A stretch of 64,000 bases of DNA from Calditrichaceae bacterium (GCA_013360445.1 JABWBP010000001.1:1-64000); one strand, 5' to 3'; shown: positions 53,773 through 64,000, numbered from the stretch's first letter. The notes: generated by a model not told the origin, from the sequence alone. Numbers and translations are program-made.

Positions 53773-54816
<1,044 letters not shown>

Positions 54817-54854
54817 TCAACCAGCCGCGGTCGGCTTTGTCACAAGAGAATGAC

Positions 54855-55175
54855 ATGGTAACCATGCAGCAAATCAAAAAATTGGGGCTCCGCATCGGCG
54901 AGGAATTTCGACCGGAGCGGGTGATCCTGTTTGGATCGTACGCCCAGGGTCGGCCGACTCCGGATTCCGACGTGGATTTATTGATCATTGCGAAATTCGA
55001 GGGTCGGCCGGTGGACAAGTCGGTAGAAATACGCCTGAAAGTTCGACCTCCTTTCCCTGTTGACCTGATTGTGCGCACTCCCGAAAAAGTGCGCGAGCGC
55101 CTGGCAATGGGTGACGCCTTCATAAAAGAGATACTTACTGAAGGAATAGTACTCTATGAAGCCAATCACGCTTGA
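54855..55175 (+). CDS. Minimal nucleotidyltransferase (MNT/MntA-like antitoxin of an MNT-HEPN pair)
   Basis: ILFGSYAQGRPTPDSDVDLLII is the GS-x9-DxD pol-beta NTase motif. ATG at 54855. 20-bp overlap with the HEPN ORF. Confidence 0.75.
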   Translation: MVTMQQIKKLGLRIGEEFRPERVILFGSYAQGRPTPDSDVDLLIIAKFEGRPVDKSVEIRLKVRPPFPVDLIVRTPEKVRERLAMGDAFIKEILTEGIVLYEANHA

Positions 55176-55542
55176 GTGGGTCGCTAAAGCGGAAGGCGAC
55201 TTTGCAATGCTGGAGCGAGAGTCTCGCGCACGGAAGAACCCCAATTATGATGGCATTTGTTTCCATGCCCAGCAATGTGCAGAGAAGTATATCAAGGCCA
55301 GATTGTGTGAAGCAGGCATTGAATTTAAGAAGATCCATGATCTGGTTTCCCTTCTTGATAAAGTTCGTGGGGTTGAACCGATGTGGGAAACCTTTCGCCA
55401 GCACCTTGCTTATCTTTCCGGTTTCGCGGTGAGTTTTCGCTATCCCGGTGAATCCGCTGACAAAACCATGGCGCTGGATGCCCGTAAACGCTGCCGGCTC
55501 TTTCGCCGTGCAGCCCGTGAAGCTCTTGGGCTAAAACCGTAA
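55156..55542 (+). CDS. HEPN-domain protein (HepT-like toxin partner)
   Basis: All-alpha ~125-aa protein with the Rx4-6H-like element SFRYPGE near its C-terminus. Tightly coupled to the NTase. Confidence 0.7.
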   Translation: MKPITLEWVAKAEGDFAMLERESRARKNPNYDGICFHAQQCAEKYIKARLCEAGIEFKKIHDLVSLLDKVRGVEPMWETFRQHLAYLSGFAVSFRYPGESADKTMALDARKRCRLFRRAAREALGLKP

Positions 55543-58240: not shown

Positions 58241-59077
58241 TTACTCTACTTGCAACGCGATCTTCCGAGTTTCCTCTACCCCGGCAAAAAGCGCCAGAGT
58301 GTAAACCCGGAAAAGATACTTACCGGGCTTTAACCCGTTCAACCGCAGTTCGTTTTCATATTCCGCAACTCCGGGCGAGAGCCTTTTTGCGACCCCGGTT
58401 CTGAAAAGCACCTCTCGTTCCTGCTCGTCCGTGGCAATAATCCCCACGTCGTACCCGGAAGTATCCACGTTCATGTTTTTGGCAGAGGGGATTACCGGAA
58501 ACTGCAGCCGGGCGATCACCGAAAACGGCTGATTGGCTTTTAAAGGGCTGCCGGGCTCTAATAAACGCTGAACTTGGCGAAAGTTGATTTCCCGGAAGGC
58601 GCTTCTCTGCGAAGTTTTTGCAGGGATTTTTTGCAACTCTGCATCCGGCCGGGACAGTTCCTGCCGTTTTCCCTCCGGCTGGCGCGATTTTTTCTCAAGC
58701 GCCTCGGCCTCCGAAACCTGGTCATCCTTTTTCACCGCCGCTTCCAGTTTCCCGAACAATTCTGCTTTTTCCGCTTCCAGGTTTCGGTTTAACCGTCTAA
58801 TTTCCTCCAATTCTGCTTCCAGGCGCTCCGACCGCAGTTTTTCCGCTTGCAGCTGCTGCCGTGCTTCCGATAGCTCCTTCTCCAACGTTTCCGTTTTCCC
58901 CGGCAGGCTCTCTTGCCCCGCCAGGCGGGCCTTTGTTTCCGCCAACTGCTTTTGGCATTTGGTTAATTTCTTTTCCTCTTCCTTCAACAACTCACAGGTT
59001 TCATCCAGGGCTTTTTGCAACCGGGCGCTGGATTTTTCCCCGGCATTTCCAGGGCTTGACGTTTTAGATTTGCTCAT
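58241..59077 (-). CDS. Coiled-coil protein with a C-terminal beta-rich domain
   Basis: A Lys/Glu/Leu heptad-rich segment is followed by a ~110-aa C-domain. Start placed at MSKSKTSS (ATG 59075-59077, ggagg RBS). Confidence 0.5.
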   Translation of the reverse strand: MSKSKTSSPGNAGEKSSARLQKALDETCELLKEEEKKLTKCQKQLAETKARLAGQESLPGKTETLEKELSEARQQLQAEKLRSERLEAELEEIRRLNRNLEAEKAELFGKLEAAVKKDDQVSEAEALEKKSRQPEGKRQELSRPDAELQKIPAKTSQRSAFREINFRQVQRLLEPGSPLKANQPFSVIARLQFPVIPSAKNMNVDTSGYDVGIIATDEQEREVLFRTGVAKRLSPGVAEYENELRLNGLKPGKYLFRVYTLALFAGVEETRKIALQVE

Positions 59078-59244
59078 ATCACCCTCCCCTTCGGGCCGGA
59101 ATTCCGGCGTTTTGGATAGTGGAGAAATTATCCCGGGGCATTCCCGGGCCGGTTTCAAGAAAACACGGATAGACCGGTTGCCCGGCCTATCCGTGTAGTT
59201 AGCGATTCTTTCTGCTTCTACCTTGTTGGTGACGTGCGCACCCC

Positions 59245-59922
59245 TTACAGGGTCTGGGCCTCGCCAATCACTTCGAAGGTTACCGCTTCGTCGAACCCGG
59301 AAATGGGCATCCGCTCGCCGCGCTGCTCATCAATTTTCTCGTAGAATTCCCACTTGGTGATCAGCTTATAGACCTGCTCTTGATCCAACTTCTCCCGTGC
59401 GATGACTTCCGCATGGGCGGTGTAGAGCAATTCTTTGCGGGAGGTATCTTTCCAGAACCAGACATTGGGCCCGTTCGTCGCCGGTTCCAGCGATACCACC
59501 TTTTCATACAGCAGCACCGGGTTTCCTTCCGCCGGCGCCAGCGGATGGGCAAACATGCGCACCTTGGAATAGAACCGGTCGCAAGCCAGGTATCTGGCGA
59601 AGGAGCCGCTCAGGCGGGCGGTATGGTCGATCTTGATTCCGCGTTCGATGTCCACCACCTGGTCCTGGTACGGTTCAATACCGGGGTCTTCATCTTCTAT
59701 CCCGAGTTGCCCGGCCAGGCCAAATTCGCGAATACAGGGGTGGCCCTGTTCCTGTTTGGGATCGCCCAACTTACCGTAGAGCTTCTCCGTTACCGGCGCC
59801 CTGAGATTGATGTTCGCCAGGCAAGAAGCCGCGCGATATTCATTCTCCAGAACCGGAAAATCGAATGCCAGCATATGGCTGAGCGGCATATTGGGGCTGG
59901 GGTTTACAAATTGAGTAGGCAT
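59245..59922 (-). CDS. Hypothetical protein
   Basis: Long ORF with codon usage consistent with its neighbours. No motif recognised. Confidence 0.5.
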   Translation of the reverse strand: MPTQFVNPSPNMPLSHMLAFDFPVLENEYRAASCLANINLRAPVTEKLYGKLGDPKQEQGHPCIREFGLAGQLGIEDEDPGIEPYQDQVVDIERGIKIDHTARLSGSFARYLACDRFYSKVRMFAHPLAPAEGNPVLLYEKVVSLEPATNGPNVWFWKDTSRKELLYTAHAEVIAREKLDQEQVYKLITKWEFYEKIDEQRGERMPISGFDEAVTFEVIGEAQTL

Positions 59923-60340: not shown

Positions 60341-62959
60341 CTAACGTGAACTCCGCCCCATCAGCAGCCGCGCCAGCTCCCGCAAACTCGCCGGTTTCAC
60401 CCCCCGCTCCCGGTTAGCCGCCCCGATTTCGTAGGCGATCTTCCACTGCTTCATCAAGGTGCGGTAGGCTTTGAAGAGACCGTTGCCGGGGTCGTAAATG
60501 TGGGTTGCTTCCGAAGTCACCCCGTTCAGCTCCACAATTTTGAAGTTCTTCCCCTGCTTGAAACCTTCCAGGTTGGGCGTGCGAATATCATAGCGCCCGA
60601 AATAAAATCCCGCGAATCCCCGGCTGATGCGATCAATCGCGGCTTCTAATTCCGGGGTGAGAACGCCGTTCCCGTCCAAAAAAAGCGCCCCGCGGCAGTG
60701 CGTGCCTACTTCCACTAATTGAATCTCCTCCCCCGCCGGGGGAATTTCGTACAGCCGCTGGCGGTGTTTCCGGAAGTGGAACGGCGCCATGCACATCGCC
60801 CGCTGGTCTTTCAGGATCAATTCCTCGAAGCTGCTCGCGCCGTCGCCGGTAAGCGTCAGCAAGCGCTTGTCGGTGATGGAAAAAATCCGCCCCCTCCCCT
60901 CTCCCGGGTAGCGATAGTAGAATACCCCGAACTCCCTTCCCGCAACGTACTCCTGCGCGATAGTATCCTGCCACGCCGCCGTTAAGTAACGCTGCGCTTC
61001 CGGTTCCGAGCGGATAATCGCCACTCCCTCGCCCCGCTCGCCGCTATCCGGCTTCAGCACCACGGGAAAAGAGAGGTTCTCCTCCGCCATGAATTGGCGA
61101 AGCTGCCGCAGCCGCTCCTCCCCGGGCAGGTTTCGGGAAATAACCCGCCAGCGGGCCACCCGGTCGCTGGCGGCGTGCAGCCCCTGCAAAATCTGCGACT
61201 TCGATTCCCCCACAAAACCGCCCGCGGGAATGGCCGGGTTAGCGGCGGTAAAAATCGTTAATCCGCGATAGCGAATTCCTAAGTACAACGCGTACAGCAC
61301 AACCGGGGGATAGAACGCCCAGCGCGGCCAGAACTCCCAGCGAACCCGGCGGCGCAGCGCCGCGAGCAGCAAACGCCGCCCCCGGAAGCTGAACAGCGGC
61401 AGCCCCAGTTTGATGACGCCCCAGATCAACAGCGCGGTAAAAAGAAGAACCGGGAGGGCGTAGGTTTTGAAAACATGGTAATATTTCAGGATTTCACCGC
61501 CTACCAGGGTTGCCAACCCCACCACCAGGGGCGTCCAGAGGGCGGCGGCCAGCAAAAAATAGAAGGAGAACTTCCCAAAGCCCATTCCCAACACCCCCGC
61601 CCCAAAATAGGTGGGCAACCGGCTGCCCGGCAAAAACCGGCTGACCAGCACGATTTTAGGGCCTCGCGCCGCAAACCAGTGTGCGGTGCGGGCAATATCT
61701 TCTTCCCCCAGCACCCATTTGAGAGGCGGGTAACGCAGGGCCGGGCGCCCCAGGAACTTTCCGGCCAGGTAGAGCAGCATATCGCCTCCCACGATTCCCG
61801 CGAGCGCCGCAACGGCCGCAGGCAGAAAGTCAATCGCCCCCCGCGCCGCCATCAACCCCGCGCCGATGCAGGCCAGGTCCTCGCTGGCCAGGGTGGCCAG
61901 GGCGATCAACAGCATGAACACAAACAGGGTAATTCCCTCCGCTTTGGGAATGTTTACTTGCACGAAGGGCGCTTCCGCTTCGGCGATTCGCCGGGGATCG
62001 GCCTCCGCCCGGGTTCGCGCCTCCCCGCGCTCCACCCGCGCGATGAAGCGGCCGATTTCCTCCGCCATTTCCCCGCTGCGGTTCATGATCAGCAGGTGGC
62101 CGTCAGGGTAGAGCAGCATTTCACTCTGCGGAGCGATGCGATAATGCTCCTTCGCCGCCGCCAGGGGCACCAGGCCGTCTGCTTCCCCGTGCAGAATCAG
62201 CATGGGCGCCTGGAACTGTTGCAGAATGCGGCGCAGGGGGCGCTGGTCGGAATCGAAAAAATTGCGCGCGTAGGGAAGGTTCAGGGGAAAATGGTCCAGC
62301 GCCCCAAAGTGCGGCGTCGCTTCTTGCAGCAGCCAGATGAGCGCTAATTGCATCCCGTGCAGGGCGTGGTTGAGGTGGTAATCGCCTAACAATTCCGCCT
62401 CCTGCACTCCCAGGCCGGAAAGCATCGCCAGGGAGGAAAACCGCTGCGGCTCCAGACCGGCCATTTCCAGGGCCACGGCGCCGCCCATGCTGTAGGCTGC
62501 AACGTGAACCTGTTGCAATTCCAACTCCCTCAGGAATTGCACCAGCCAGCGCGCCTGGGCGCGGAAAGAATAATCTCCCAAATCGCGGTTAGAAGCGCCG
62601 TAGCCGGGAATGTCCGGGGCGATCACCCGGGCGTGTTTGGCCAGCCCGGAGATGAACCCGTGCAGCATCTCGTTGCCCACCGGGCTGCCGTGCAGCAGCA
62701 GTACCACGGGGGGATTCCCCGCCTGCGGCTGCCCCGTTGCCGGCTTCCCGGTGTAAACGTCGTAGTAGGCGATGGCGAAGGGGTTTTTCGCAGCCGGATC
62801 GGGCAAATGAACCACTTTTTGCCCGGGAGCGGGCGGAAATTCCGGGGGATTAATGATTTGCCAGGCATGGGACAGCGCCAGCAACGCCAAATAGAGTGCG
62901 GCGAGCAGCTTCCAGCCGCGGAGTTTGAATTTTTTGTGAGCGGAACGTTTCATTTTCAT
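60341..62959 (-). CDS. Tri-domain fusion: alpha/beta-hydrolase + DedA/VTT (SNARE-associated) membrane domain + C-terminal ATP-grasp domain
   Basis: Residues 60-330 carry the alpha/beta-hydrolase motifs LLLHGSPVGNEM and the nucleophile elbow AAYSMGG. Residues 340-520 are DedA-like helices (ASEDLACIGAGLMAARG...LVSRFLPGSRLPTYFGAGVLG). Residues 560-872 are ATP-grasp (VVLKPDSGERGEGVAII...EYVAGREFGVFYY...FKIVELNGVTSE). Confidence 0.75.
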   Translation of the reverse strand: MKMKRSAHKKFKLRGWKLLAALYLALLALSHAWQIINPPEFPPAPGQKVVHLPDPAAKNPFAIAYYDVYTGKPATGQPQAGNPPVVLLLHGSPVGNEMLHGFISGLAKHARVIAPDIPGYGASNRDLGDYSFRAQARWLVQFLRELELQQVHVAAYSMGGAVALEMAGLEPQRFSSLAMLSGLGVQEAELLGDYHLNHALHGMQLALIWLLQEATPHFGALDHFPLNLPYARNFFDSDQRPLRRILQQFQAPMLILHGEADGLVPLAAAKEHYRIAPQSEMLLYPDGHLLIMNRSGEMAEEIGRFIARVERGEARTRAEADPRRIAEAEAPFVQVNIPKAEGITLFVFMLLIALATLASEDLACIGAGLMAARGAIDFLPAAVAALAGIVGGDMLLYLAGKFLGRPALRYPPLKWVLGEEDIARTAHWFAARGPKIVLVSRFLPGSRLPTYFGAGVLGMGFGKFSFYFLLAAALWTPLVVGLATLVGGEILKYYHVFKTYALPVLLFTALLIWGVIKLGLPLFSFRGRRLLLAALRRRVRWEFWPRWAFYPPVVLYALYLGIRYRGLTIFTAANPAIPAGGFVGESKSQILQGLHAASDRVARWRVISRNLPGEERLRQLRQFMAEENLSFPVVLKPDSGERGEGVAIIRSEPEAQRYLTAAWQDTIAQEYVAGREFGVFYYRYPGEGRGRIFSITDKRLLTLTGDGASSFEELILKDQRAMCMAPFHFRKHRQRLYEIPPAGEEIQLVEVGTHCRGALFLDGNGVLTPELEAAIDRISRGFAGFYFGRYDIRTPNLEGFKQGKNFKIVELNGVTSEATHIYDPGNGLFKAYRTLMKQWKIAYEIGAANRERGVKPASLRELARLLMGRSSR

Positions 62960-62992
62960 AGATTACGGCAGGAGCACTTGCCTAACGGTCGA

Positions 62993-63288
62993 TCCCGGCG
63001 TTGCGCGGAGGCGTAAACCTCAGGTATTTTTTTACCGCAAAGACGCTAAGACGCAAAGAACATCATGTTGATTTTGGTGAATATACTCGTTATGGGTTAG
63101 TTTGTAACACTCTGGCATTACAAAAATGCCTTAAAATAAGGGTTTTATCCAGAGTGAGGTGTTACAAAATTATCCTTTGCCGGTATATCAGCAGGATTTT
63201 CGGGCGAGAACTCTCTAAACCTCTGCGTCTTAGCGTCTTTGCGGTGATTTTTTGCTTAGGTTTACGCCTATGCCGCGTTGCGGGATGA
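62993..63288. mobile_element. ~295-bp MITE-like foldback element with ~60-bp terminal inverted repeats and an internal inverted repeat
   Basis: Left cgttgcgcggaggcgtaaacctcaggtatttttttaccgcaaagacgctaagacgcaaaga versus right ctctgcgtcttagcgtctttgcggtgattttttgcttaggtttacgcctatgccgcgttgcg. Internal gtaacactctgg / ccagagtgaggtgttac. It overlaps the 3' end of the NRDE ORF. Confidence 0.6.
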
Positions 63289-64000
63289 CACTCCACTTGC
63301 GCGGAAGAGTAATCGGGGCGAGGAACGAGTGGCTGCACGGCGAGCCGGGAACGTAGCGGAATTCGATAGTGTCCGTAGCGACGCCGATCTCGCTGTAACT
63401 GACCGTGTGGGCGTCCTGCCGGTGCATGCACACGGAGTAGGGGCCGGGCTCCGGCTCGTGGCTGCGATGGTAGGAGCGTAACATCCCCGCGGTGAGGGGC
63501 CGGGCGCCGGAGAAGCGTTCCCGGAACCGCTTGATGCGCCCTTCGATCACCTCCCGGGAATCGAACGAAGAGGAGGAGAGCGGGCACGCCGCCGCCCGCT
63601 CGATCTTCAGCCCCCCTTCGCCGGCATTCCAGGTGCAGGCCAGGGGAGGCGCGGCCGGCGCAAAGATCAGCAAAATGAAGGGGCGATAGTCTTCCAGGCG
63701 CTCCTGTTGCAGCCGCCGCAGGGCTTCCGCCGCTTCCCGGCAATCGAGGAGCGATTTCAGCAGCACTCCGCGGCTGATGTAGTCTTTCCCGGGAGCGGTT
63801 TTCGCACCCCCGGCGTGGTAATAATTCAAAATCGCCGGAGCGACGCCGAATTCGTTCACCCCGATCCAGCTTCCCCCGGCGTCGGCGTCCGCGGGGGCGA
63901 TGTATTTCACCCCGTTCAACTCCCCGGCGGCCGGGGGGCGGGCAATTCCCCGGGTTTTCAGCTCATCGCGATTGAAGAAAAGCCGGTATCCGGTTGATTG
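63230..64000 (-). CDS. NRDE-family (TANGO2-like) protein, N-terminus runs off the window
   Basis: Reading past the TTG at 63919 to the window edge gives ...RLFFNRDELKTRGIARPP.... This contains the NRDE motif, followed by GGSWIGVNEFGV. The 3' end and stop lie inside the MITE-like element. Confidence 0.7.
   Translation of the reverse strand, partial: QSTGYRLFFNRDELKTRGIARPPAAGELNGVKYIAPADADAGGSWIGVNEFGVAPAILNYYHAGGAKTAPGKDYISRGVLLKSLLDCREAAEALRRLQQERLEDYRPFILLIFAPAAPPLACTWNAGEGGLKIERAAACPLSSSSFDSREVIEGRIKRFRERFSGARPLTAGMLRSYHRSHEPEPGPYSVCMHRQDAHTVSYSEIGVATDTIEFRYVPGSPCSHSFLAPITLPRKWSVIPQRGIGVNLSKKSPQRR

Follow-up and report, generated by a model that had tools for sequence, protein, structure and literature searches.

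In the 64,000-nucleotide (nt) stretch from a Calditrichaceae bacterium (GCA_013360445.1, JABWBP010000001.1:1-64000), hereafter the window, a gene near the end encodes a protein of 872 amino acids (aa) that begins with a membrane anchor, continues with an alpha/beta-hydrolase and a DedA/VTT domain, and has an ATP-grasp domain at its C-terminus. The gene and its parts are the following:

60341..62959, minus strand: fusion-protein open reading frame (ORF), complete, with ATG start, 872 aa and stop codon at 60341-60343
62852..62911, minus strand: N-terminal signal-anchor transmembrane (TM) helix, aa 17-36 (hydropathy; AlphaFold2 (AF2) helix 10-36)
61970..62827, minus strand: alpha/beta-hydrolase domain, aa 45-330, predicted periplasmic (Pfam, Foldseek, conservation)
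61370..61954, minus strand: DedA/VTT membrane domain, aa 336-530 (Pfam, NCBIfam, AF2, conservation)
61253..61369, minus strand: juxtamembrane linker, aa 531-569 (AF2; net charge)
60344..61252, minus strand: ATP-grasp ligase domain, aa 570-872, predicted cytoplasmic (structure prediction, fold search, profile alignment, conservation)

Domains and predicted topology of the fusion protein

The hydrolase domain was recognised by two Pfam models, Abhydrolase_1 (E 2.5e-24, 86.7 bits against a cut-off of 25.8, region of aa 84-300) and Abhydrolase_6 (E 7.7e-15, 56.6 bits against 26.3, aa 86-300). Its triad of S157 (in AYSMGG), D261 and H288 lies in canonical order after strands 5, 7 and 8, with S157 at the turn between strand 151-156 and helix 158-169, D261 after strand 253-258 and H288 after strand 280-284. 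Within the 90 aligned full-length homologs to which all residue-conservation and net-charge figures given here refer, S157 is kept in 88 sequences and the other two residues in all 90. Foldseek matched the domain to esterases, ABHD6 and PlaF with values between about 1e-12 and 1e-11.

The middle domain scored above the cut-off of the Pfam model VTT_dom (PF09335; E 5.6e-14, 53.1 bits against 33.9, aa 368-482) and gave a UptA-like NCBIfam match of 54.2 bits, far under the equivalog cut-off of 250; a sequence search with this domain against solved structures found no match. In the full-length AF2 model (predicted local distance difference test score, pLDDT, 88.1), the helices of the DedA core span residues 342-358, 360-372 and 378-403 and, after a 43-residue loop, 447-456, 461-488 and about 497-522. 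The corresponding predicted DedA elements are re-entrant helix 1 (RH1, aa 342-372, with E360/D361 at its tip), a TM helix (378-403), a cytoplasmic loop (404-446), re-entrant helix 2 (RH2, tip R441...R447), a second TM helix (461-488) and an extra TM segment at about 497-522. E360, D361, D393, R441 and R447 are each found in 90/90 homologs. Acidic residues at the RH1 tip, together with two arginines spaced by six at the RH2 tip, are the signature of COG0586, the DedA subfamily of undecaprenyl-phosphate flippases (PMC10127716), and the fusion carries both elements; acidic residues with an Arg-x5-Arg pair have been interpreted as serving the proton-coupled transport of an anionic lipid (PMC10127716).

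For the C-terminal region, the Pfam models RimK ATP-grasp (19.6 bits against 21, aa 618-673) and ATP-grasp_3 (16.8 against 23.2) stayed below threshold, and some homologs exceeded the Pfam ATP-grasp cut-off (P0176, 25.6; P0212, 25.0; P0121, 24.1). As the Pfam and NCBIfam scores of the fusion were sub-threshold, the assignment was settled by structure prediction and fold search and, since the full-length Foldseek search was dominated by alpha/beta-hydrolases, this needed a model of the C-terminal part only. The AF2 model of aa 545-872, built with 23 family sequences, reached a pLDDT of 90.7 and a predicted template modelling score of 0.87, and its top Foldseek matches in the PDB were all ATP-grasp ligases (cyanophycin synthetase 2.7e-11, GshF 9e-11, Ddl about 4e-9). 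The family profile aligned with CphA2 (8.5e-10) from the lysine of VVLKPD to the Mg-binding E-x-N, K636 of this motif corresponding to the lysine of VVKP and E810-x-N812 to the E-x-N of the cyanophycin synthetases. The motif residues are K636, Q669-E670-Y, R789/D791/R793 and E810-x-N812; K636, R642, Q669 and E676 occur in 90/90 homologs, E810 in 89/90 and N812 in 86/90. As modelled, the C-terminal region is an ATP-grasp fold in which the canonical N-terminal subdomain appears replaced by short helices that follow the hydrophobic juxtamembrane helix. Among its solved relatives, cyanophycin synthetase, LysX/ArgX and RimK are some of the nearest, and BacD, RizA, GshB/GshF and Ddl/VanA also belong to the group. 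From the conserved catalytic residues, all three domains look active.

An identity as D-alanine--D-alanine ligase was rejected, since identity to Ddl structures is 10-18% and the short N-terminal helices stand in place of the Ddl domain. Among the best 25 of 49 NCBIfam matches (E <= 1) there was no bacterial Ddl model, the sole Ddl-type model being the archaeal one, at 24 bits against 500. Stand-alone members of the ATP-grasp family are systematically annotated under this misleading name in Vibrio, Marinomonas, Shewanella, Aliivibrio and Salinivibrio (e.g. L095:7869-8981; P0391-P0509).

The arrangement across the membrane was predicted from charges and homology. The segments predicted to be cytoplasmic are positively charged, namely the tail of aa 1-16 before the anchor helix (7 K/R; net charge +3.0), the DedA loop (+4.8) and the juxtamembrane linker (+5.8), and the predicted periplasmic segments have a net charge near zero. 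The linker consists of an R/K-rich amphipathic helix and a hydrophobic helix, FYPPVVLYALYLGIRY; the latter is kept in stand-alone ATP-grasp homologs, whose hidden Markov model (HMM) envelope begins at the linker. In TMEM41B, cysteine accessibility established the order re-entrant loop 1, TM helix, cytosolic region, re-entrant loop 2, TM helix, with one extra TM segment on either side of the DedA core (bioRxiv 10.1101/2020.12.18.423352). The predicted order of elements in the fusion fits this topology one-to-one, as judged from the AF2 helix pattern and the charges. Because of the positive-inside charges and the TMEM41B topology, the hydrolase is predicted to be periplasmic and the ATP-grasp ligase cytoplasmic.

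The original prediction, made from the window sequence, had proposed a single 872-aa protein with these three domains. The ORF is present as described, the hydrolase and VTT domains were confirmed by Pfam and the ATP-grasp domain by structure prediction and fold search, and the spatial logic of a ligase inside, a transporter in the membrane and a hydrolase outside agrees with the positive-inside rule and with TMEM41B. Its assignment of the hydrolase to the AcvB/VirJ type did not hold: the Pfam scan of the 872-aa protein gave no PF06057 (VirJ) match at E <= 1, the nearest relatives are lipid esterases, ABHD6 and PlaF, and the identity was rejected in favour of the class Abhydrolase_1/6.

Distribution and conserved gene neighbourhood

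The three-domain architecture is present in hundreds of genomes of about nine phyla. A search with the whole protein found 860 homologs, the best 120 of which are 779-930 aa long, share its domain content and belong to KSB1, Desulfobacteraceae, Acidobacteriota and Balneolaceae. When the C-terminal domain was searched exhaustively, 1,175 cluster representatives were obtained (E <= 1e-30). These fall into three length classes, the middle one consisting of DedA plus ATP-grasp and the shortest of ATP-grasp alone. In a scan of one genome per species at least 575 genomes were positive, labelled Desulfobacterota, KSB1, Calditrichota, Acidobacteriota, Gemmatimonadota, Verrucomicrobiota, Kiritimatiellia, Rhodothermia and Chloroflexota. 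The public annotation of the three-domain fusions is only "alpha/beta fold hydrolase", which is a misleading name.

The original prediction had left room for an assembly fusion of adjacent genes. The same gene occurs without mismatch in GCA_026648155.1 (L089), within an identity that spans 18,173 nt, and is identical in two independent assemblies (L089 and L091). Moreover, a three-domain ORF of 850-890 aa was found in 45 of 85 non-redundant loci from different phyla, conservation is unbroken across the domain junctions in the homolog alignment, and in each of the three domains the key residues vary little or not at all. Since the same ORF recurs in many phyla and in independent assemblies, the fusion is a genuine gene and not an assembly artefact.

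The window ends inside the gene upstream of the fusion. Its Pgk is 100% identical to that of a Calditrichaceae metagenome-assembled genome, whose contig (JAPKGE010000004.1 of GCA_026648155.1, the assembly L089) equals the window over the shared stretch, continues 3 kb beyond it and supplied the upstream context. The adjoining features are:

63230..64000, minus strand: TANGO2/NRDE gene, upstream partner, running off the window end (Pfam PF05742; L089)
L089:18185-18727 (window-equivalent 64012-64554): DinB/DinB_2-like gene, 180 aa, beyond the window end
62964..63297, no strand: insertion of 334 bp with nested inverted repeats, resembling a miniature inverted-repeat transposable element (MITE) (alignment with relatives; inverted repeats)

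On one strand, the source operon comprises an OlsB-like gene (Acetyltransf_5, 292 aa; best NCBIfam match OlsB, 143 bits), an OlsA-like gene (PlsC-type acyltransferase, 267 aa; best NCBIfam match OlsA, 127 bits), the DinB-like gene, the TANGO2 gene and, last, the fusion, with junction overlaps of 1, 22 and 13 nt. The original prediction could not have recognised the link to aminolipids, as these partner genes are situated past the end of the window. The full TANGO2/NRDE gene (264 aa; window-equivalent 63230-64024, L089:17403-18197) begins MCTVTW...FFNRDE, and the MC start and NRDE are kept in all 42 copies, of 46 matches, that could be trimmed to an N-terminal M-C. The TANGO2 profile matched human TANGO2 weakly among solved structures (E 0.007); single-sequence searches against solved structures with the TANGO2 homolog and with the DinB-like protein returned only noise. 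TANGO2 resembles N-acyl amidases and acyltransferases and binds acyl-CoA (PMC13044924), and human TANGO2 has recently been proposed to be an N-terminal cysteine nucleophile (Cys-Ntn) amidase of fatty-acid derivatives. Since the TANGO2 gene is linked to the aminolipid operon, our data suggest that N-acyl amino-acid lipids may be its ancestral substrate class. The DinB-like partner (176-184 aa; divergent DinB/DinB_2, YfiT-like superfamily) carries the invariant-looking motifs G.H.RH..DHY, SHTVHHYALI and FGVAPSTL, which suggest a His-triad metal site.

To follow the linkage across phyla, the neighbourhoods of the 85 non-redundant loci were scanned with one HMM per partner, and partners were counted in the 58 loci with at least 6.5 kb of upstream sequence. 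OlsB-like genes were found in 46/58 of these, OlsA-like in 37, DinB-like in 43, TANGO2 in 30 and DedA in 56, and the commonest gene order is OlsB, OlsA, DinB, TANGO2, fusion. In all 85 loci, the ORF carrying the ATP-grasp domain is of the hydrolase-DedA-grasp type in 45 cases, of the DedA-grasp type in 30 and ATP-grasp alone in 9, so the hydrolase is fused in about half of the family, and DedA and ATP-grasp are almost always together. Some loci labelled Acidobacteriota have DinB, DedA, TANGO2 and ATP-grasp as separate genes. Unbiased clustering of the neighbouring ORFs at the 85 loci revealed no recurrent cell-wall, glycan or phospholipid genes; the other recurrent neighbours were a Ferric_reduct-Rieske protein (about 19/85 loci) and a YHS-domain protein (9 loci), the rest being antisense-ORF artefacts. 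The former, a membrane protein with Ferric_reduct and Rieske [2Fe-2S] domains (L013:3436-4476, L004:979-2028 and about 17 other loci), may take part in tailoring the same lipid, as a component for electron transfer or hydroxylation.

A tblastn search of annotated plasmids and chromids identified 29 replicons with ATP-grasp homologs of 34-41% identity. In Paracoccus denitrificans PD1222 the ATP-grasp, alpha/beta-hydrolase (28% identical to the domain of the fusion) and VTT genes are adjacent; in Azospirillum VTT and ATP-grasp are fused to each other; in Variovorax the gene immediately after ATP-grasp is OlsB-like. Salinivibrio carries consecutively VTT, ATP-grasp (annotated D-alanine--D-alanine ligase), DinB-family and NRDE-family genes, and in Vibrio sp. 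THAF191d and Photobacterium the VTT, ATP-grasp, DinB and NRDE genes precede the gene of a bifunctional synthase of the OlsF type (428 and 407 bits).

The Vibrio cholerae locus (L100:5423-10713) encodes VTT (193 aa), ATP-grasp (378 aa; 37.5% identical to the domain of the fusion), DinB-like (180 aa), TANGO2 (248 aa), YHS (148 aa) and OlsF (581 aa) proteins. Mapping of primers published for VCA0646 and for a promoter fusion of VCA0649 (PMC12186959) identified the OlsF gene as VCA0646 and the DinB-like gene as VCA0649; the YHS gene is VCA0647, the TANGO2 gene VCA0648, and VCA0649 is directly preceded by the VTT and ATP-grasp genes. VCA0646 is an experimentally verified ornithine-lipid synthase, and VCA0649-VCA0646 have been described as a four-gene putative operon with unnamed functions, the ATP-grasp and VTT genes not being discussed (PMC12186959). 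The partnership with an aminolipid synthase persists here, and the linkage therefore survives the switch from split OlsB/OlsA to fused OlsF.

As to the remaining features of the region, the 334-bp insertion looks like a MITE or palindromic element, judging from its inverted-repeat arms of 15, 25 and 30 nt; it is present in a single copy in the window, had no match in an Rfam scan, and is absent from relatives 84% and 89% identical. In these the TANGO2 stop codon overlaps the ATG of the fusion gene by a 4-nt gene overlap, and the insertion lies exactly at this junction, extending TANGO2 by about 22 codons and uncoupling it from the fusion gene. A promoter and terminator scan around the fusion gene gave nothing exceeding chance. 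Downstream of the fusion lie two ORFs without Pfam match, at 59245-59922 (minus strand, 225 aa) and 58241-59158 (minus strand, 305 aa); the latter is rich in Glu, Lys and Leu, suggesting a coiled coil, and the 225-aa protein is probably outside the system of the fusion, because its conservation is limited to close relatives and about 420 nt lie between the two genes. Between gap and pgk (window 54762-55542, plus strand), overlapping nucleotidyltransferase (NTP_transf_2/Polbeta) and HEPN-domain genes have the arrangement of a HEPN/MNT toxin-antitoxin module; the pair is present in the 89%-identical relative (L007/L008), and in the 84%-identical relative (L005, L006) no HEPN/MNT genes were called at this place and a HicA-toxin gene was found in L006.

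Proposed function and alternative explanations

We propose, with a probability of roughly 0.5, that the fusion works in an aminolipid pathway as its membrane-embedded module for tailoring and export. Because of the conserved operon with OlsB/OlsA- or OlsF-type genes, the substrate is most likely an acyloxyacyl aminolipid made by these enzymes and not aminoacyl-phosphatidylglycerol. In the reactions of cyanophycin synthetase (G-domain), RimK and LysX/ArgX, a carboxylate on an anchored substrate is phosphorylated and joined to a free amino acid, and an aminolipid would present such a carboxylate at the membrane surface.

We infer every chemical step, and the substrate, as follows. The OlsB-like and OlsA-like enzymes (OlsF in Vibrionaceae) would make an acyloxyacyl amino-acid lipid of the ornithine-lipid type in the cytoplasmic leaflet. 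The membrane-proximal ATP-grasp domain would then phosphorylate a carboxylate, most probably the one that is free at the alpha position of the lipid head group, and couple an amine or amino acid to it, giving an amide-extended head group as in taurine-ornithine lipid and the Ser-Gly and Orn-Ser-Gly lipids; alternatively, it might ligate the carboxylate of an amino acid onto the head-group amine. The DedA domain, with the acidic pair and the Arg-x5-Arg typical of proton-coupled anionic-lipid flippases, would move the lipid to the periplasmic leaflet, where the Ser-Asp-His hydrolase may de-acylate it, trim it or transfer an acyl or head group. The DinB-like metalloprotein and the TANGO2-like Cys-Ntn protein would act on the same lipid in the cytoplasm. 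ATP-dependent amidation of the ornithine-lipid carboxylate, as in the taurine transfer that yields cerilipin, is the kind of reaction that ATP-grasp enzymes catalyse. An ATP-dependent enzyme without an assigned gene joins taurine to the carboxylate of ornithine lipid through an amide bond, and Ser-Gly and Orn-Ser-Gly head groups exist, glycine lipid being the precursor of Ser-Gly lipid; the 2026 review from which these data are taken mentions no flippase or transporter and does not name the ligases of the taurine, Ser-Gly and Orn-Ser-Gly head groups (PMC12971839).

Several points weigh against this proposal. The lipid product is not known for any organism carrying the system, and some Proteobacteria (P. 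denitrificans, Azospirillum and Komagataeibacter) show no local OlsB/OlsA link. No ATP-grasp enzyme is known to act on a membrane lipid, and the inference of a substrate from relatives is weak, because the usual N-terminal substrate domain seems replaced. In addition, a simple ligate-and-flip model leaves the roles of the DinB-like and TANGO2-like proteins unexplained. In V. cholerae, labelling with 14C-ornithine was reported to give only ornithine lipid and spots at the origin under the conditions tested (PMC12186959), and the DedA signature residues of the fusion are those attributed to undecaprenyl-phosphate flippases (PMC10127716). The stand-alone ATP-grasp homologs of Komagataeibacter (Acetobacteraceae; 34% identity) have a methyltransferase and an iron redox enzyme as neighbours but neither DedA nor OlsB, a context that speaks neither for nor against the cerilipin idea. 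Butyramide-cysteine glycerolipids of Desulfatibacillum were dropped as a candidate product, being glycerol-based and given without a gene link.

The same operon linkage would also fit turnover or recycling of aminolipids by analogy with LplT-Aas, in which the hydrolase would remove an ester-linked acyl chain, DedA would flip the lyso-aminolipid inward, the TANGO2-like Cys-Ntn amidase would cleave or re-acylate the N-acyl bond, and the ATP-grasp domain would re-ligate or activate. The likeness of TANGO2 to N-acyl amidases and acyltransferases and its binding of acyl-CoA (PMC13044924), the resemblance of the hydrolase to lipid esterases and PlaF, and the finding that the alpha/beta-hydrolase OlsI is an aminolipid O-acyltransferase (PMC12493201) are consistent with such a route. 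We consider it unlikely, however, since about half of the systems have no hydrolase, whereas DedA and ATP-grasp are nearly always paired, and since the ATP-grasp relatives are amino-acid ligases and not fatty-acid activators.

We judge it rather less probable that the ATP-grasp enzyme makes a soluble head-group precursor, a dipeptide or modified amino acid, which OlsB or OlsF would then acylate, with DedA serving only as an anchor or as a transporter of ions or small solutes. The combination of a DinB-like protein, a Cys-Ntn protein and a ligase does recall the logic of ergothioneine biosynthesis, and the L-amino-acid ligases BacD and RizA, as well as GshB/GshF, are among the structural relatives. 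Nevertheless, the ATP-grasp domain is fused or translationally coupled to DedA in 75/85 loci and its juxtamembrane helix is kept even where it stands alone, and the role of glycine lipid as precursor of Ser-Gly lipid argues for extension on the lipid (PMC12971839).

The original prediction had invoked aminoacyl-phospholipids, that is, tRNA-independent aminoacylation of a phospholipid such as phosphatidylglycerol by ATP-grasp, followed by DedA flipping and AcvB/VirJ-like removal. A ligase inside and a hydrolase outside would match MprF with an aminoacyl-phosphatidylglycerol hydrolase, and VanA-type ATP-grasp enzymes can form esters, yet the protein has no match to VirJ or MprF domains and the conserved partners are aminolipid synthases and not phospholipid enzymes; as nothing points to aminoacyl-phospholipids and the operon points to acyloxyacyl aminolipids, we regard this scheme as improbable.

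Even more doubtful is an envelope-polymer pathway, in which a UptA-like DedA would recycle undecaprenyl phosphate, the ATP-grasp enzyme would attach an amino acid to a lipid-linked glycan or peptidoglycan precursor, and the hydrolase would serve as esterase or peptidase in the periplasm. Cell-wall synthesis does involve Ddl-like and D-Asp-ligase-like ATP-grasp enzymes, UptA is the best NCBIfam DedA match (54 bits) and the acidic residues and Arg pair form the signature of the COG0586 flippases, but the UptA score is far under its cut-off of 250 and the 85 neighbourhoods contain no recurrent cell-wall or glycan genes. Finally, an artefactual fusion by mis-assembly or a lost stop codon has a negligible probability, for although the modules are separate genes in some lineages, no support for it was found, and the 850-890-aa ORF of 45 loci in many phyla, the independent assemblies and the continuous conservation across domain junctions all oppose it.

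The fullest form of the aminolipid proposal, which we put forward only tentatively, is a head-group editing and export system spread over many phyla, with a lipid-acting ATP-grasp enzyme, DedA as the missing aminolipid flippase and TANGO2 as an N-acyl-amino-acid-lipid amidase or acyltransferase. If true, this would make the ATP-grasp enzyme the first of its superfamily to work on a membrane lipid itself, provide a candidate for the enzyme that amidates ornithine lipid at the expense of ATP and has been sought since the 1970s, and give the family of the human disease protein TANGO2 a natural substrate class. About half of the sequenced bacterial species are predicted to make ornithine-type aminolipids, which replace phospholipids under phosphate limitation and affect stress and polymyxin resistance (PMC12971839, PMC12186959). 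The fusion family offers specific, testable candidates for the aminolipid flippase and head-group ligases, with members in the genetically tractable V. cholerae, P. denitrificans PD1222 and Azospirillum, and hundreds of its homologs carry one of the mistaken names "D-alanine--D-alanine ligase" and "alpha/beta fold hydrolase". The close tie between a bacterial TANGO2 homolog with conserved Cys2 and NRDE and the synthesis of N-acyl amino-acid lipids is a new clue to what human TANGO2 does biochemically.

Comparison with known systems

The original prediction knew of no characterisation of this architecture, and this stands: literature searches for DedA with ATP-grasp, OlsB with TANGO2, ornithine lipid with DedA, and OlsB with ATP-grasp brought up no account of the system, and the only fusions named in the DedA survey by Todor et al. 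are those with rhodanese, PAP2 and oxidoreductase domains (PMC10127716). There is a substantial chance that the fusion represents a new pathway.

Each domain has known relatives. With PlaF and ABHD6 the hydrolase has in common the Abhydrolase_1/6 fold and the Ser-Asp-His triad; PlaF (6i8w; Foldseek about 1e-11) was deposited as a membrane phospholipase A and has a single N-terminal TM anchor, like the hydrolase domain of the fusion. Identity is about 20%, and the hydrolase domain differs in being fused to DedA. The ATP-grasp domain is only 10-20% identical to cyanophycin synthetase, RimK, LysX/ArgX, Ddl/VanA and GshB/GshF and, unlike these enzymes, is joined to a membrane protein and has its N-terminal domain seemingly replaced. 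The VTT score above the cut-off and the two predicted re-entrant helices relate the middle domain to UptA, YghB and YqjA (COG0586) and to TMEM41B/VMP1, and the acidic residues and Arg-x5-Arg pair are invariant in the fusion family. The extra TM segments at both ends and the enzyme domains on both sides distinguish the fusion from the COG0586 proteins, and its RH1 motif is SEDL, unlike the canonical E-N...P-G-D of Escherichia coli YqjA.

With respect to aminolipid pathways, the fusion is encoded in the same operon as OlsB/OlsA- or OlsF-type genes, its split counterpart in V. cholerae lying beside the verified OlsF, VCA0646. The known enzymes of ornithine-lipid tailoring are the hydroxylases OlsC, OlsD and OlsE and the methylase OlsG, none of which is an ATP-grasp enzyme, a DedA protein or an alpha/beta-hydrolase of the fusion type.

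The closest parallel in design is MprF together with AcvB/VirJ/PA0919, in which likewise a cytoplasmic head-group enzyme and a translocator are combined in one polypeptide and a hydrolase acts on the outer face; the product of MprF alters the membrane surface charge, as that of the fusion would. The fusion is not a member of the MprF family, since the Pfam scan of the 872-aa protein at E <= 1 gave no match to LPG_synthase_TM or to the aminoacyl-phosphatidylglycerol synthase domain LPG_synthase_C. MprF draws on aminoacyl-tRNA, whereas the fusion would use ATP through its ATP-grasp domain and has a translocator of the DedA type; the substrate of MprF is phosphatidylglycerol, whereas the genomic partners of the fusion indicate a phosphorus-free aminolipid. 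Of the MprF-like analogy drawn in the original prediction, the logic of ligating, flipping and hydrolysing survives, and the lipid class and the type of hydrolase do not. The system would be a synthase-flippase for lipid head groups that has other components and serves another class of lipid.

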